Origin: a virus
Lineage: Duplodnaviria; Caudoviricetes
Direction: 5' to 3' (one strand)
DNA: 35,829 nucleotides
IMG/VR virus record: IMGVR_UViG_3300014202_000320
Location: 1 to 35,829 of that record
The notes beneath the pieces were generated by a model, which worked only from the letters and a program-made list of their open reading frames with translations, was not told the origin of the DNA and made no database searches. A program made the translations under genes and the position numbers. Position 1 is the stretch's first letter; each line of letters opens with the position of its first letter. Positions 1 to 35,808 of this stretch are shown piece by piece.

Positions 1-225
1 CTAGGGGGTTTCTTTCTTCTGGTTCCTACGGTTCTGCAACCAGCCAACAAGGATGGTGCCTAGAACGCCTGCCACTGCCGTTGCAGTCGGATTGTTGAGC
101 TGCTTAACGGCATCGATCCAACTGTTAGTTAGCAAAATCAAGCCTGGAAGAGAAGTCTGGAAGGCTGTACGTAGGACTCTTGCTCTACGTTCAGGACTGA
201 GCTTGAAACGCTTAAGGATAGACAA
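1..225 (-). CDS. Putative holin (small 2-TM membrane protein)
   Basis: TTG start with strong GGAGGT RBS; two hydrophobic segments, RVLRTAFQT and WLQN motifs like actinophage holins, basic C-terminus. Confidence 0.6.
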   Translation of the reverse strand: MSILKRFKLSPERRARVLRTAFQTSLPGLILLTNSWIDAVKQLNNPTATAVAGVLGTILVGWLQNRRNQKKETP

Positions 226-12633: not shown

Positions 12634-12668
12634 GCAGGCCAGGGGCATATTTTGTCCCTGGCCTGTTT
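12634..12668 (+). terminator. Intrinsic terminator
   Basis: 14-bp stem GCAGGCCAGGGGCA/TGTCCCTGGCCTGT right after stop, short T run. Confidence 0.7.
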
Positions 12669-12674
12669 GCCCCC

Positions 12675-12706
12675 TTGACATGCACCGGATCTTCCGGCAG
12701 TATGGT
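12675..12706 (+). promoter_or_regulatory. Promoter with perfect operator
   Basis: TTGACA 12675-12680, CGGATCTTCCG 12686-12696; -10 ambiguous (CAGTAT at 17 bp or TATGGT at 20 bp). Confidence 0.55.
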
Positions 12707-12737
12707 GGTTGTTCCGCCGGACAGCGGGACAAAGCAA

Positions 12738-12853
12738 GCCCTAGCTAACCGAAGCTTAAAGCCTCCCGTGATCCGCAAGGTAGGAGGTCGACCGACGACT
12801 ACGAAGGTCAAGCCGGACCATGCTTACTGCCAGTGCGAGTCTGGCCTAGGGCA
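12738..12853 (+). ncRNA. tRNA-like structured RNA (acceptor stem + T-arm, expanded interior)
   Basis: GCCCTAG/CTAGGGC 7-bp stem, adjacent GCCAG-TGCGAGT-CTGGC T-arm, discriminator A; three internal hairpins. Confidence 0.6.
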
Positions 12854-12884
12854 CTAAACGGACAAAGACCAAGGAGTGACGGAC

Positions 12885-13202
12885 ATGAGGAAGCTTCAGC
12901 CCAAAGCAGGCCGCTTGGTATCCGCAAGGGTCCCCGGAACTGCAGACAACAGCAACACCATCGTGGTAGGTCGAATCATTGAGGTTGGCGAAGAGCGAGT
13001 GACCATCGTGGTTGTCAGCCATGACCATGCCAACACTTCGACCATAAACGAGAACAACGACACTGAGATCAAGTGCTCTAGTTGGGGTTGGATTCGGACC
13101 GACGATGACTCGCTTGTCCGGCAAACTGCAATGTACGACCTGCACGTTGATCGCATCATCGGCGTTTACAGCGATGCGCCGGAACGTCGCTACGGTGCCT
13201 GA
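12885..13202 (+). CDS. Hypothetical beta-rich protein
   Basis: AAGGAG RBS with ATG at 12885 (ORF track start 12876). Confidence 0.75.
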   Translation: MRKLQPKAGRLVSARVPGTADNSNTIVVGRIIEVGEERVTIVVVSHDHANTSTINENNDTEIKCSSWGWIRTDDDSLVRQTAMYDLHVDRIIGVYSDAPERRYGA

Positions 13203-13206
13203 GCAG

Positions 13207-13341
13207 GTTGTCAGGGAGCAGGGGGCTTCGGTCCCCTGTGCCACTGATCGAGGGAAGTGCTCTGCCAGAAGGAAGACCTGGCATAGAGCTGAGCGCGTGT
13301 TGCTGTCACTCCATGCTTCCTGGTCATGAACGGTTGATAAC
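13207..13341 (+). ncRNA. Multibranch structured intergenic RNA
   Basis: Closing stem GTTGTCA/TGATAAC, C(UUCG)G hairpin 13218-13239, stems 13259-13268/13278-13289 and 13245-13258/13315-13326. Confidence 0.5.
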
Positions 13342-13353
13342 GAAAGGCAATGC

Positions 13354-15967: not shown

Positions 15968-16912
15968 CTAGATCACCTTTCTACGAAAGTAGTCCGGTGC
16001 GTTAGGGTCTTTGCCTTCCTCCCACTTGACAAGACCAAGAGGAATCCAGTCTATGGCTCGCCAAGGCTCAGGCGTAAGGCCACCAGTGTGCATGTCATGC
16101 GCTGCTTGACTGACCGAGTAGGAACCCTGTCCAATCTCGTCAAGCGCATCGTACAGCAACACCTTGCGACCGTTGCGCACAAGATAGAGCGTGAGGTTTC
16201 TGTCTTGCAGGACAAGCATTGAGTCTTCCTCCGTTGGACTGTAGGGGTAGGGAACCAGCGAGGTAGGAGCACCAGGTGTAGGGAGAGTCACAGGGGCAAG
16301 CGGGGGATTGACCCGAGCATCTAGTAGAGCCTCCGCTGCGTAGCCCACAACCGCCTTCAGGTTGAGTAGACCAGGGTCCCAACGGTCCCCGTTCTCAGGG
16401 ACATGCCTGTGCCCGCAGTTGCCGTTGAAGGTTGCCCAACGCTGCTGCGTGAACCGCTGCGGCGCATCCTCCCTAGAGCTGTTGGCGATGATGCCAGGCT
16501 CTGGCGTATCGGTAAGGTCGATGTCTCCGCCTGCCGCTCGAATCCATCGAATGACAGGGGCAAGCGTTTCCCTACCAAGCCAGCGCAGATCGTCAGCGCT
16601 AAGCGTTCCGATCGTCTCGCTAAAGCCATTCACCTCAATCTGAATGCATGGCATGTAGTTCGTCTCATAACCGCCAGGCTCATTCCATAAAGCTTTAGCG
16701 GCAAGGTGAAACGGAACACATTGGAGGTTGAGCCGGCGCAATGGGTCAGCGACGATATGGCTAGGGGATCGCCAGTTAGGGCACCAAAGCCTAGGGTCAC
16801 TGGCTATCTGCGTAGTGTGCCAAACGATGCGGAAGGGATAGCCGATGAGGTATTCACCTGATGGCCCTGATGCTGTTGATTGAAACGAGAATACGAATCC
16901 TGTAGTGCTCAC
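15968..16912 (-). CDS. Endolysin, N-acetylmuramoyl-L-alanine amidase (amidase_2-like)
   Basis: IVWHTT, SHIV, IQIEVNG, GHRHVP...WDPG zinc-amidase motifs; Pro-rich linker and C-terminal domain. Confidence 0.8.
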   Translation of the reverse strand: MSTTGFVFSFQSTASGPSGEYLIGYPFRIVWHTTQIASDPRLWCPNWRSPSHIVADPLRRLNLQCVPFHLAAKALWNEPGGYETNYMPCIQIEVNGFSETIGTLSADDLRWLGRETLAPVIRWIRAAGGDIDLTDTPEPGIIANSSREDAPQRFTQQRWATFNGNCGHRHVPENGDRWDPGLLNLKAVVGYAAEALLDARVNPPLAPVTLPTPGAPTSLVPYPYSPTEEDSMLVLQDRNLTLYLVRNGRKVLLYDALDEIGQGSYSVSQAAHDMHTGGLTPEPWRAIDWIPLGLVKWEEGKDPNAPDYFRRKVI

Positions 16913-27020: not shown

Positions 27021-27323
27021 CTAGATCACGTTGGACTGTTCGACAATCACGGTCAGTTCAGAGACACCGACAACAGCACTGGAGCCGTTCAGGGTTTCTC
27101 CCCTGAATCGCCAAGTGCCTGCCGCATCCATGTCTAGAGTCAGATGGTAAACCTTGCCTGACGTAACCTCTGTGACTTCAGAGTCAACACCAAGGGTGTA
27201 CGTAGTCGAAGTGCCGCTAGGGTCCTTCACCTTGAAACGCACACCACTTGGGTTGGCTGCTGTGCCTGCCTCGTTAACGGCAGTGAGTTTGACGGTTAGG
27301 TCTTGCTGTACATAGACGGTCAC
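27021..27323 (-). CDS. Small Ig-like beta-sandwich protein
   Basis: NPSGVRFKVKDPSG...GKVY...AGTWRFR pattern; ATGA coupling. Confidence 0.75.
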   Translation of the reverse strand: MTVYVQQDLTVKLTAVNEAGTAANPSGVRFKVKDPSGTSTTYTLGVDSEVTEVTSGKVYHLTLDMDAAGTWRFRGETLNGSSAVVGVSELTVIVEQSNVI

Positions 27324-30300
27324 TGCAAGGTCTCCATAGTGAGGAAGGAACTAAGAGCTTCGAGAGTGACGCCTTGAGCAACCAGGCTCAGAGCAATTAC
27401 CTGCACCGCAGATGGTGGAATCTGAACGATCGTTCCGAGCAGTGTGCCGAACGCAGTAGCGATAGCGCCTGCCACTTCTCGCTGACCTTGAGCCGTAAGA
27501 CTCAGACCACCGAACGAAACAACAGCCTGACCTTCATGCCCAACGGTCCCGCTAGACGTTGCAGTCAGTGCACCGAAGATGGTGCTTACGGTTCCACTGG
27601 TATCCGGTACGCCAGAGGCTGTAGCCGTCAGCGCACCGAAGGCGCCGACCGCTGTACCGGTCTGCTCGATCGTTGCCCCTGCCGTGGCAGTGAGCGTGCC
27701 GAAGCTCGTGCTGATCGTCCCTGTGTGGCCCACGGAGCCAGCCACAGTGCTCGCCAGGGCGAGGCCGGTAGTGATGGTGCCGGTTACCTCAGGCGTCCCG
27801 CTAGCGGCCGCTGTGAGACCACCAAGAGCAGAGCTGATCGAACCCGTTACGGAGCTTGACCCTTGCACTGCGGTAGCGGTAAGCGCACCGAACGACGTGG
27901 AGATTGACCCAGCAACTTCGGGTGTACCTGAAGCTACAGCACTCAGACTGCCGAAACTGCTAACGATTGAGCCAGAGCCAGCAGCGGCGTAGTCTGAAGC
28001 GTGACCACCTGTTGTGTCGTCGTCACCAGGCCACCAGTAGAGATCGTCCCAAGCCGGGTTACCCCATTTTGCATCGGGGTAATTCGACGTACTTTCGTCC
28101 GACGCTACTTCGTAACGGTTTCTAGCCCATACCGAACCGGACCCGTCATCACTTACGGCCCAAGACCTAAGCGGCCTGCCAGTGCTTACAGCTCTACCGA
28201 TACGAGTGGCAAAGGTGTTTTCACGAAACGTTATACCTGTAGACGTTCCAGACGCAGACAGTGAAATCGTTTCTTGATCGCCACCAAACTTATTGCCAAT
28301 AATCTCCGCATCATCATACGAGCCAGTGCCCTGCCAGGCTAGACAGTTGGTGTTGCCCCAAATCTCCATCGTGTTATGGAGACATTGAGCACCATAGTAA
28401 TTCCCATCATTCACCAACCAGCAATCATTGTGGTACTGGTTAGCCGTAGCGTTGACGATGAAGGGGTCACCGCCATGGTGAAACCACGAATATCGTACGA
28501 TATGGGGATTCGCTACAGTTGAACCTGATAGCTGTAGAGCGTTTCCAAATCCCCAGAAGTCGCAATGATCGATAACCAAACCAGCGGGCGTAGATGTTCC
28601 GTATGCCCCATCACCAATGATTGCGAACTGATAGGACTTACCATAGCTAACCCAAGTCGACGGATCAGCCTCTACTTCCTCACCCGTCAATCTTGTGGGA
28701 TAGTTTACCACAGAGGGTTGAAAAGTGCAGTAGTTAAAGGTAACCAGTCCGCCGCTAGCAGCGAAGATCAGCGCTTGAAATGCAGTTGCATCACCTTGAT
28801 CGGAAACGTTCGCCGAATACTGGAAACGACATCCGTTAAACGTGACAGGTGAAGTGATCTTCGAGCCACCAGTACCGACAAGCACACCGGCCTGATAGTC
28901 GGCAAAGTTGACAGTCGTGCCGCCGGTTATCGTCTGCTCCGTAGCGAAGGTGCCACCAGTAAACGAACCAGGCCACGAAGGATGCTTCGAATATCCTGTA
29001 TTAGTCTCGTTGCCCCATGTCGTTGCGGTAGCGGTAAGCGCACCGAACGAAGTAGAGATCGAGCCTGCTACATCGTTGACATACTGAAGGGCTGTAGCGG
29101 TAAGCGTGCCTAGATCAATGGCAATGCTTCCCGAGACTTCCTTTGCCCCTGTTGCTGTAGCGGTAAAATCAAACGTACTGCCAGCCGTACCTTCAACGTC
29201 TGGAATGTTTAGGTTTGATATATAGGCAAAAGCAACACCAGGCCCCGGAGGTGTGCCACCTACGGCACTGCCGAATCCAAAAGCCAGTTCAACGGTAGTC
29301 AGATCAAACGTACTGCTTGCACCAGACGCTTCGTAGCGATTCGTCCAAGTGATTGCATCGCCAGACGTATCGACGAAGAGCGAACCGCCAGCTTCACGGT
29401 AGCGCCAATACTTCATCGTTGAAGCATCGTAGGTAGGCGTCGCTACTGTGGACCCATTGTAGTAGATGGTCAATACTGATTGGTCGGCACGCTTGTAGGT
29501 GGACGCAAGGAGTACGGACCCACTGGCACGAGTCAACTTGAATTCGACATAACCATAACTAGCGTTCGGCTGCACCTTCACATATGCAGCGTTGGCGATA
29601 AGGCTTCTGTCTGTGTAGTCGACCAGGTTGCGGTCAAGAGCCATGTCGAGCACGGCTTTGTTGTTCTCATAGGTAATCGCACCAAGAGTGGTGGTGAAGT
29701 TGTCTGTGTCTGCGTCGCTGAAGTCGTTAGTGATGCTCGACCAAAGGTTTGCAGCGATCACCACTGCGGTTGCAGTCAGGCCACCGAATCCGGAAGCAAT
29801 AGAACCAGCAACGTCAGGGATACCGGAAGTAGTAGCTGTTAGTGCTCCGTAGCTCGATGCAATTGCGCCACTGACATCAGGCGTACCAGATGCAGTGCCA
29901 GTGAGTGCGCCGAAGTCGGTAGTGATTGTGCCGGCTTTAGTCGCAAGACCAGACGCAGTGACAGTCAGCGAACCAAGCGCAGTAGTGATAGCGCCTGACT
30001 TCTCAGGTATCCCTTGAGCCGTAGCAGTCAATGCGCCGAAGTTGCTAGCGACAGTGCCAGACTTATCAGGTGCACCTAGTGCGGTAGCAGTGATTCCACC
30101 AAGGCCAGTGCTGATAGAACCAACTACGTCAGGCACACCAGCAGACGTAGCAGCGAGTGCGCCTAGGTTGCTGACAAGGGCACCAGTAACACCAGGAACA
30201 CCAGAAGCAGTAGCAGTGACAGCGCCAAGATTGGTAACGATCGTTCCGGTTACGGAGCCACCACCAGCGCTAGCCGTAACAGCAATCGCTATCTGTCCGA

Positions 30301-30886
30301 CGTCAAGGCCAGTATAACTAGCCAAACCAAAATCAGCAGTTGCAGCAGAGGTGTTTACCCATTGGCAAACGTAGAACCCTGCATACGATGTATTGTTTAC
30401 ATCGACGAGAACTGAACCAGTGCCAGTGCCGGTAGCAGCCGACGCAGTGAAGTTAATTGCCGACCAATCGGACGTCAGAGTGCATACGAAATCGCCAGCG
30501 CCTACGGTCAAGCTCATCAATGCTTGAGTGTCGTTGGCAGTAGCAGAGCCGAAGTCGTTTGCGCCCGACAGGACTAGAACAATAGCGCCCCCCCTGTTGG
30601 TTCCAGTGCGTGAGATAGTGATTACGCCTGAACCATCAGAAGCAGCTTTAGCCGTATAGCCTCTAGCGTATGGATTACCTGCACCAGCACCTGACGTCAC
30701 TGCTCTTGACGCAAAGGTCAAACCTGTTGCGGTGCACGCTGTGACAGCATTAGCCGCATTCTCAAGGCCGGTCAAGACCACGATGACATCATCGGTCAAC
30801 CAGGTAGCAGAAGCAGTCGCAAACGACCCACTTCCAGCTTCAACCCACGTAGACGTTTGGTAGGTGCCACGAACCGCAATAGCCAT
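27320..30886 (-). CDS. 1188-aa fibre/adhesin-like protein: 21-aa repeats, lectin-like and beta-helix domains
   Basis: About 20 repeats like VAGSISTSFGALTATASGTPE in three blocks; YWRYREAGG..WT beta-sandwich; FNGCRF/IDHCDF/IVRYSWFH/IIGNKF/FRENTF beta-helix rungs. Confidence 0.8.
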   Translation of the reverse strand: MAIAVRGTYQTSTWVEAGSGSFATASATWLTDDVIVVLTGLENAANAVTACTATGLTFASRAVTSGAGAGNPYARGYTAKAASDGSGVITISRTGTNRGGAIVLVLSGANDFGSATANDTQALMSLTVGAGDFVCTLTSDWSAINFTASAATGTGTGSVLVDVNNTSYAGFYVCQWVNTSAATADFGLASYTGLDVGQIAIAVTASAGGGSVTGTIVTNLGAVTATASGVPGVTGALVSNLGALAATSAGVPDVVGSISTGLGGITATALGAPDKSGTVASNFGALTATAQGIPEKSGAITTALGSLTVTASGLATKAGTITTDFGALTGTASGTPDVSGAIASSYGALTATTSGIPDVAGSIASGFGGLTATAVVIAANLWSSITNDFSDADTDNFTTTLGAITYENNKAVLDMALDRNLVDYTDRSLIANAAYVKVQPNASYGYVEFKLTRASGSVLLASTYKRADQSVLTIYYNGSTVATPTYDASTMKYWRYREAGGSLFVDTSGDAITWTNRYEASGASSTFDLTTVELAFGFGSAVGGTPPGPGVAFAYISNLNIPDVEGTAGSTFDFTATATGAKEVSGSIAIDLGTLTATALQYVNDVAGSISTSFGALTATATTWGNETNTGYSKHPSWPGSFTGGTFATEQTITGGTTVNFADYQAGVLVGTGGSKITSPVTFNGCRFQYSANVSDQGDATAFQALIFAASGGLVTFNYCTFQPSVVNYPTRLTGEEVEADPSTWVSYGKSYQFAIIGDGAYGTSTPAGLVIDHCDFWGFGNALQLSGSTVANPHIVRYSWFHHGGDPFIVNATANQYHNDCWLVNDGNYYGAQCLHNTMEIWGNTNCLAWQGTGSYDDAEIIGNKFGGDQETISLSASGTSTGITFRENTFATRIGRAVSTGRPLRSWAVSDDGSGSVWARNRYEVASDESTSNYPDAKWGNPAWDDLYWWPGDDDTTGGHASDYAAAGSGSIVSSFGSLSAVASGTPEVAGSISTSFGALTATAVQGSSSVTGSISSALGGLTAAASGTPEVTGTITTGLALASTVAGSVGHTGTISTSFGTLTATAGATIEQTGTAVGAFGALTATASGVPDTSGTVSTIFGALTATSSGTVGHEGQAVVSFGGLSLTAQGQREVAGAIATAFGTLLGTIVQIPPSAVQVIALSLVAQGVTLEALSSFLTMETLQ

Positions 30887-35313: not shown

Positions 35314-35808
35314 TCAGCTCTTTCGAGGGTCCATGCGCTTGGGTCGCTCTGGCAGGCTCTGCACGCTCGCCAACGTCGTTTCCTGCTCCCCCTTGAGGTA
35401 CGCAGGGTGGTGGCGCCACCGAAGTTGAAGCATGGCCTTGGGATTCAGCCCTAGCTTGTCCTCAATACGCTGAAGGCCAGTGACAGTGGCACCGCTAAAG
35501 TCACCATCTGTAAAGGATTCGTAGAGGAAGATCCATTGCTCAATGATTGAGCGCATATCTTCGGGCCACTGTATTGCCTGAGGTGAAGACCAAAGCCTAT
35601 CCCATGCGGCAACAGCCTGGGTGGACCACTTGGGTTGATAGGTCTTGGTGACCATCTCGCCAGTGTCTTTGTCCACAATGTGCACTTGCTTCTTCTTGAG
35701 TGCAGGCATTGGGGGTATAGGGTTCGGATTGTGGGCCGGAAGCTCAGTCCAGACCATATCGAGTTGATTGCGTCTAGCACGCTCTTCAGCAGGCTTAGGG
35801 TATGCCAT
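35314..35808 (-). CDS. terS: Terminase small subunit
   Basis: WDRLWSSPQAIQW and EDKLGLNPKAMLQLRW motifs; directly upstream of terL. Confidence 0.85.
   Translation of the reverse strand: MAYPKPAEERARRNQLDMVWTELPAHNPNPIPPMPALKKKQVHIVDKDTGEMVTKTYQPKWSTQAVAAWDRLWSSPQAIQWPEDMRSIIEQWIFLYESFTDGDFSGATVTGLQRIEDKLGLNPKAMLQLRWRHHPAYLKGEQETTLASVQSLPERPKRMDPRKS

Follow-up and report, generated by a model that had tools for sequence, protein, structure and literature searches.

A tRNA-like RNA in the likely early leader of a tailed phage and short tRNA mimics before the genes of actinobacterial phages

What may a phage gain from an RNA that displays the upper half of a tRNA directly ahead of a protein-coding gene? 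The question is raised by positions 12738..12856 of IMGVR_UViG_3300014202_000320. The window, by which we mean the whole stretch of DNA that was analysed, is this complete viral record of 35,829 bases, which CheckV estimates as 49% complete. Genes for an integrase, a repressor, an exonuclease, a helicase, a primase, RuvC and a dCTP deaminase in its left part indicate a temperate tailed phage, and on the right the minus strand encodes tail and head proteins and the terminase. The host is likely actinobacterial, because the terminase matches those of actinobacteriophages at about 30%. Several further traits of the record may be mentioned. A holin-like 74-aa ORF, recognised by eye (1-225, minus strand), has base 1 as its very last position; were the record, which is classed as linear, circular, the following gene on this strand (35314-35808) would start 21 nt on. 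An AT-rich palindromic stretch at 402-535, with many TAGTAC units and a perfect 21-nt inverted repeat, is a possible replication origin; similar stretches are found in two related phages (L053 2750-2870 and L061 near 4619). Between the head genes, an 1188-aa ORF (27320-30886, minus strand) contains 21-aa repeats with a 63-nt period and has neither a PHROG match nor a Pfam match above cut-off.

The tRNA-like element sits between the replication operon and a series of small genes without assigned function, and all features of the locus given below are on the plus strand. The last stop codon of the upstream operon is followed by a 13-bp hairpin (12635..12665), a possible terminator judging from its sequence and fold, which the terminator scan of the record did not call. 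Next comes a likely early promoter (12675..12706), read by eye and not called by a consensus promoter scan, in which TTGACA (12675-12680) precedes either CAGTAT, with a 17-nt spacer, or TATGGT, with a 20-nt spacer. A palindrome noticed by eye inside it (12685-12697) is a candidate operator. Possible operator sites are also formed by GACATGCA, present at 1345, 12629 and 12677 on the plus strand and at 16096 on the minus strand, with two copies overlapping TTGACA boxes, and by an 11-nt repeat at 1014 and 12681 that the 1014 site and the promoter spacer have in common. In the syntenic relative G003, whose helicase is 60% identical to that of the record, the same place is occupied by an array of promoter-gene-hairpin cassettes (read by eye), and for this reason the locus is taken as an early-gene region. 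The syntenic relative L053 has an array of promoters of the TTGAC-17-TANNNT type at the equivalent place, also read by eye. CsrA-type GGA motifs (CGGACA) occur 8 times on the plus and 10 times on the minus strand of the record, with 3 of them near the RNA.

Downstream, the start codon lies 28 nt 3' of the element and is preceded by a Shine-Dalgarno-like AAGGAG (12871..12876). The gene that it opens (12885..13202) encodes a singleton of 105 aa, predicted to be all-beta, with no sequence match in Pfam, PHROG or PDB; a search with this protein retrieved 0 loci. Its nearest structure model in the atlas belongs to a PemK/MazF cluster (TM 0.55, below the atlas's own bar), and the AlphaFold model computed without alignment has a mean pLDDT of 39. 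The suggestion that the RNA acts jointly with the adjacent protein is not supported: the protein is a singleton without usable structure, and in the annotated records the short elements described below adjoin many different small genes. After this first early gene, an intergenic region of 150 nt (13203-13353) contains a UUCG hairpin and a second long hairpin.

The anatomy of the element can be followed from its 5' side. A leader hairpin (12711..12730; pair probabilities 0.98-0.99) is separated from it by 7 A-rich, single-stranded nucleotides (12731..12737) with A at position -1, a predicted RNase P leader judging from the sequence and from comparison with the short elements discussed below. 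The acceptor-type stem comprises seven Watson-Crick pairs (12738-12744/12846-12852), and G1, at the head of its 5' strand, is the predicted RNase P cut site. It is stacked on a T arm (12829..12845) made of a 5-bp stem (12829-12833/12841-12845) and the loop TGCGAGT (12834-12840), in which U54, C56, R57 and A58 conform to tRNA. The 3' part (12846..12856) ends with a discriminator A (12853) and CUA in the place of CCA. Between the acceptor strands lie 84 nt, made of a connector (12745..12760), a hairpin A with a GCAA tetraloop (12761..12788; 0.66-0.75), a hairpin B (12790..12809; 0.88-0.89) and a segment (12810..12828) in which hairpin C, at 12810-12825, has a pair probability of 0.00; by family-model alignment, this last segment resembles the 5-nt strand and 11-12-nt linker of the short elements. 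The first-pass annotation had described the acceptor stem, the T arm, the A-CTA end, the 84-nt interior, the inner hairpins and the leader hairpin, and all of them are present where it had placed them. Its labels for the inner arms, 'D-like' and 'anticodon-like', were not supported, the latter hairpin being the one with probability 0.00.

Could such a top half arise by chance? A descriptor asking for a 7-bp acceptor stem and a 5-bp T arm has a single site in the whole record, and it found matches in 4 of 300 dinucleotide shuffles of the record (1 of 300 in a stricter form). The tRNA top half of this RNA is real. Thermodynamic folding counts against it: the minimum-energy fold is not exceptional, with z -1.62 and 16 of 200 shuffles folding as well, and in ViennaRNA the 3' side of the T arm (12839-12845) pairs preferentially with 12812-12818. 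In the free ensemble, the T stem has a pair probability of 0.22, the outer five acceptor pairs 0.65-0.71 and the inner two 0.52 and 0.26. Forcing the acceptor stem and T arm yields a fold 2.7 kcal/mol worse than the best free one, in a model without tertiary contacts.

As had been anticipated, the element corresponds to no canonical class. ARAGORN finds 0 tRNA genes and RF00005 does not match; the interior is 84 nt long and there is no cloverleaf with a D arm and a 7-nt anticodon loop. That the RNA is not a standard tmRNA, as proposed from the lack of a G3-U70 pair, is borne out: the third pair is C3-G70, the end is ACUA rather than CCA, there is no tag frame, and ARAGORN and Rfam are both negative. 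Nor does it have the marks of an antisense RNA of the C4/CI kind, there being no Rfam match and no colinear target nearby. A tRNA fragment of an attP site was rejected, since the RNA has both strands of the acceptor stem and lies 10 kb from the integrase gene. An Rfam signal for RAGATH-23 (E 0.056, far below cut-off) covers the upstream hairpin and not the tRNA-like element.

The T loop itself has counterparts in genuine tRNA genes. Genes that ARAGORN calls as tRNA-Arg, -Ile and -Met carry TGCGAGT as their T loop in 4 (L006, L016, L026, L037) of 8 candidate tRNA-like loci tested, these 8 being drawn from a set of 50. Around position 1501 of four other loci (L008, L035, L043, L049), tRNA-like genes with a TGCGAGT loop, probably tRNA-Asp and missed by ARAGORN, occur in phage tRNA arrays. 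In the G55 tRNA-Met of L026, GAAGC stands at the same positions as in our element and is part of the D loop. In the connector, GAAGC at element positions 14-18 is therefore the more likely D-loop mimic, whose AG would meet the G55-containing T loop; AG occurs in the element at positions 16-17 only.

Full-length homologues of the 119-nt RNA were found neither by blastn nor by pattern scans nor by a single-sequence covariance model. Against phages, blastn gave nothing at E 1 and short matches only at E 10; against plasmids, it gave 3 short matches only, and the 3' 27 nt of the RNA match an Acinetobacter plasmid tRNA-Leu(UAA) at 92.6%. Exact or gapped patterns returned 0 hits in GTDB genomes and 0 in IMG/VR. 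A helicase search did retrieve relatives of the phage, whose loci are without the RNA: a DNA search of 3 related records was negative in all 3, no such element was found in the syntenic G003, and the single-sequence model run over the relatives gave nothing outside the element itself below E 0.6. Over 100 loci, the best match of this model (28 bits) was carried by the 3' half. The element is thus a single instance, and hairpins A-C are without a covariation test because no full-length homologue was found.

A different picture emerged when the top half alone was considered. A gapped pattern led to 12 loci, two of which hold several short tRNA-like elements, and a wider pattern (T loop plus GGGCAC) extended the set to at least 120 loci. 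Applied to 197 loci and the window, a descriptor gave 112 matches, which were reduced to 55 unique elements by removal of duplicates and of 38 overlaps with ARAGORN tRNAs; 48 of the 55 have a linker of 10-14 nt. These mini-tRNAs, 43-47 nt long and anticodon-less, consist of a 4-6-bp acceptor stem, the linker and a 5-7-bp T arm (11-12 bp in total), followed by AC and two variable bases; the constancy of C74 was built into the search patterns. Changes on both sides were seen in 9 of 10 aligned stem pairs, for elements that had been selected for pairing. A family model matched 31 of 36 records, most of which had been chosen for holding a pattern match, with 1-10 copies each; it found none in three relatives of the window's phage.

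Two features of the family, neither of them built into the search patterns, point to a tRNA-like elbow and to a defined place in the transcript. The T loop and the linker vary together: among the 48 elements, 24 combine UGCG with AG and 20 combine UUCG with GG, while one is crossed and three have other combinations. The two parts match in 44 of 45 cases (Fisher p 7e-12 on these 45, kinship among elements being ignored), and both types stand side by side in 4 loci. In the light of the anatomy of the tRNA elbow, as treated in PMC4810234, this switch is the G18/U55 contact of tRNA changed to A18/G55, and it is evidence for an elbow in the family. As to position, the mini-tRNAs come after a stop codon and ahead of the ribosome-binding site that follows it: in 35 of the 48, a stop triplet, whatever its frame, lies 6-12 nt upstream, and 42 are followed within 17-50 nt by a motif resembling a ribosome-binding site and a start codon. 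A is found at position -1 in 39 of the 48 elements of this first set and in 58 of the 72 of a larger set of short elements, of which only 2 end in ACCA.

Variants also exist with linkers of 16-43 nt that enclose one or two hairpins; one copy, with a 36-nt linker, is a tRNA-Gly according to ARAGORN. In L100, L122 and L076, another hairpin stands between many of the mini-tRNAs and the ribosome-binding site, whereas the window copy has none. Type II hammerhead ribozymes were noticed in two mini-tRNA loci, L075 (973-1036; 45 bits, above cut-off) and L147 (1501-1561; 32 bits, below it). The L075 ribozyme occupies the same kind of slot, 230 nt from mini-tRNA elements.

The family seems to have gone unnoticed. 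In the annotated phages xhp1, Madraxi, Morgana, SWU2, Sheen and Dagobah, its members lie unannotated between genes, and Rfam has no match to the mini-tRNAs in the loci scanned. A literature search, which took in PMC4201824, PMC9302106 and PMC9897764 and left aside the large candidate-RNA catalogues and their supplements, found no description of the family, nor any account of tRNA-like signals as repeated punctuation of phage early operons. The CaiB intergenic repeats, as they appear in PMC9302106, are a different motif.

How does the element of the window compare with this family? It shares the G1-started 12-bp coaxial stem, the T loop, A at -1, a non-CCA end and a start codon within 50 nt, a fit that is partly circular in that the family was found with a motif derived from the window. 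It departs from the family in that its 84-nt interior takes the place of a 10-14-nt linker with AG or GG at positions 9-11. The best match of the family model in 96,975 bases is 12812-12856, with only 20 bits and E 0.059, the seed motif being window-derived here too.

Closer in architecture are the Pleft leaders of Cluster A mycobacteriophages. In L5 (Z18946), a long-interior tRNA-like module (51,226-51,131, minus strand) lies directly before gene 89, with a 6-bp acceptor stem, a 63-nt interior with hairpins, a 5-bp T arm and an ACUA end. The region matches 135 phage records, 132 of which are mycobacteriophages. Cluster A Pleft modules have interiors of 36-75 nt, a GG loop that matches their UUCG T loop and, in L5, D29, Serenity, Piro94 and Edison31, an ACUA end. 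Across nine aligned copies, 16 of 35 pairs show changes on both sides, above all 500 shuffles and all slid controls. The 88-89 intergenic region of L5 (L234 around 146, minus strand) contains a second T-arm-bearing element, before gene 88, and D29 genes 63-64 have only 9 nt between them in the present annotation.

The Pleft leader gives rise to the most abundant phage RNA, which is stable, processed to species of 100-500 nt and toxic when cloned (Dedrick et al., 2017; PMC5712189). In L5, about 90% of the transcripts end at 51,140-51,190, and gene 89 is weakly expressed (PMC5712189); these ends fall inside the module. A deletion of 51,195-51,407 could not be purified, whereas one of 51,407-51,619 could (PMC5712189), and the RNA is apparently essential on this account. 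The former deletion takes the first 32 nt of the module and about 180 nt upstream of it. The passages of this paper that concern Pleft do not call its RNA tRNA-like: 'tRNA' stands there for tRNA genes, and neither 'secondary structure' nor 'tRNA-like' occurs (PMC5712189).

The window RNA has the layout of the Pleft leaders of L5, D29 and StarStuff, with an early promoter (a likely one in the window), a leader, a long-interior tRNA-like module, ACUA and the first early gene. The leader is, however, about 145 nt long in the window against about 500 nt in L5. Moreover, the top half has 6+5 bp in L5 and 7+5 bp in the window, the T loop is UUCGAUU in the former and UGCGAGU in the latter, and the interiors differ, that of L5 having a hairpin with a GGAAUG loop. 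Homology to Pleft in sequence and structure, as marked by the GGAAUG hairpin and the GGGUAG stem, is not seen in the window RNA: the Cluster A model R3 has no match at the element with E up to 2. By analogy, it can be proposed that the window RNA is an analogue or a distant member of the mini-tRNA and Pleft elements and that it probably works like them; it is the largest form found, and the Pleft RNA of L5 and D29 ends in one such module. The view of the first-pass annotation that the RNA is an undescribed tRNA mimic, possibly an RNase P or RNase Z signal, thereby gains a covarying family before actinophage genes and a long form at L5 Pleft, while the processing itself is proposed by analogy.

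The explanation that we favour, at about an even probability, is that the window RNA mimics a tRNA top half in the leader of a likely early operon and serves as a signal for host RNase P, fixing the ends and the lifetime of the early transcript. It is suggested by what is kept, namely G1, an 11-12-bp stack, an elbow and a short free leader, and by what is dropped, namely the anticodon arm and CCA. The known properties of the enzyme are in keeping with such substrates. RNase P binds the elbow (PMC4810234, PMC4919913, PMC1874595) and pairs the 3' end of its substrate with the L15 loop (PMC4919913, PMC1874595), and in Bacillus subtilis it cuts CCA-less precursors in vivo (PMC1874595). Transcription would start near 12711. 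The acceptor and T stems would then stack into a 12-bp helix and the interior AG, for which the pairing is possible in sequence, would dock on the UGCGAGU loop to form the elbow. RNase P would grip this elbow and the A73-C74 end, cut before G12738 and remove a 27-nt leader. The mRNA of 12885-13202 and of the small genes behind it would thereafter begin with a base-paired, structured 5' end. Part of the RNA may also be cut or trimmed on its 3' side into a stable species of about 116 nt, and ACUA in place of ACCA would prevent its handling as a finished tRNA. In gene arrays, mini-tRNAs would split the early transcript into units, each with a folded 5' end. For the window copy, G1, the 12 bp, the T loop, A at -1, ACUA and the start codon 28 nt on all speak in favour of the RNase P signal. 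What counts against it is the 84-nt interior, beyond what a pure cutting signal explains, together with the lack of a full-length homologue, the absence of the element from G003, the family score of 20 bits, the negative Cluster A model and the ViennaRNA fold that breaks the T stem. In addition, the L5 read profile and the weak expression of gene 89 speak for a module that stays on the leader RNA as its 3' end rather than for a clean RNase P cut before it.

This last point, together with the fact that RNase Z acts on CCA-less ends (PMC4919913, PMC1874595), makes a free, trans-acting RNA the main rival, which we regard as a serious though clearly less probable explanation. Here the leader plus module, or the 116-nt module, would be a stable non-coding RNA whose 3' end is set and protected by the tRNA-like fold, and which would act in trans, as Pleft RNA seems to do, for instance by titrating RNase P, enzymes that bind the elbow or defence nucleases that cut tRNAs. 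The drop of L5 reads inside the module and the abundance, stability and toxicity of the Pleft transcript (PMC5712189) agree with it, as do the large structured interiors of promoter-proximal copies, which a cutting mark would not need. Most family copies, however, have the minimal form and are linked in position to stop codons and start sites; between the window module and the next gene there is no terminator-like hairpin, and the RNA offers no canonical anticodon arm that could serve as a decoy.

The other rivals look unlikely. The 92.6% match of the 3' 27 nt to the plasmid tRNA-Leu(UAA), a CUUAAAG loop-like motif in the interior and the absence of the element from the syntenic relative would suit a decaying tRNA-Leu(UAA) gene with insertions and no present function. 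Such a remnant is improbable, since all 12 top-half pairs are intact while neither ARAGORN nor Rfam recognises D or anticodon arms, and since the ACUA end, A at -1 and the position obey the family rules. Somewhat more doubtful still is an action on the ribosome, in which the elbow would bind the L1 stalk or another tRNA site and help translation to start or restart at the next gene. The L1 stalk does recognise elbows (PMC4810234), and the stop-codon spacing is fixed with start codons close by; against this, the window and Pleft copies come after a promoter rather than a stop codon, ordinary Shine-Dalgarno motifs follow most copies, and a tRNA-length acceptor stem with G1 suits an end-measuring enzyme. 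The least probable of these explanations makes the RNA a C4/CI-type antisense regulator of the gene at 812-1285 or the RNA antitoxin of a presumed MazF-fold neighbour. Positions 12828-12842 are the exact reverse complement of 891-905 (15 nt), and 12783-12792 that of 872-881 (10 nt), within the coding region of 812-1285. Yet matches of 15 nt occur in 8 of 301 equally long tiles of the genome, the two stretches matched here lack colinearity, and one of them is the T arm itself; pairing with 872-905 was therefore rejected as within the range of chance. As for the antitoxin, the PemK/MazF resemblance (TM 0.55) falls under the atlas's bar and the protein has no match in Pfam, PHROG or PDB sequences.

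Returning to the RNase P signal, a more general proposal, which may equally well hold or fail, is that actinobacterial phages use an RNA punctuation in which elbow-bearing tRNA top-half mimics bring in the host's RNase P, so that early transcripts are cut, capped and timed, with 43-nt copies before up to ten early genes and copies of 70-120 nt at the main early promoter. The family is present in cultured phages of Mycobacterium, Gordonia, Rhodococcus, Streptomyces and Actinomyces, which makes the proposal directly testable. It gives a structural handle on the role of the abundant, stable and apparently essential Pleft RNA of Cluster A. Moreover, a 44-nt elbow mimic would be a compact natural substrate of RNase P, and possibly a tool to cut or stabilise actinobacterial mRNA.

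Among known RNAs, YrlA carries a tRNA-like domain in actinobacteria and phages, and RNase P cleaves the YrlA of Mycobacterium smegmatis, whose acceptor-like stem has 7 bp (Chen et al., 2014; PMC4201824). As described there, YrlA has an acceptor-like stem-loop between its T and D arms, whereas the arm order of the window RNA is different; the two are set apart partly by this description (PMC4201824). The idea of a Y-RNA-like ligand was not upheld, given this arm order and the lack of a match in the one test of the YrlA model RF02553. Nor is a Ro60-like gene found among the proteins of the phage record that were scanned. More generally, tRNA-like processing signals are known in organelles, in eukaryotic long RNAs and in a few bacterial RNAs. 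The window RNA and the mini-tRNA family, which is uncatalogued in Rfam, would be of this kind, as far as their sequences allow function to be proposed. In P1 C4 RNA, the tRNA-like domain of tmRNA, plant mitochondrial t-elements and mascRNA, an acceptor stem on a T arm serves as an address for the enzymes of tRNA maturation. Unlike these, the window and mini-family elements have no Rfam match, no G3-U70, no tag frame and no encoded CCA, and those of the mini family are repeated before phage genes. Early transcripts of phage T7 are cut at RNase III sites. Such sites and ribozymes share with the tRNA mimics the slot between small early genes, but the mimics would rely on a tRNA enzyme of the host, and the cut RNA would start with a folded 5' end.
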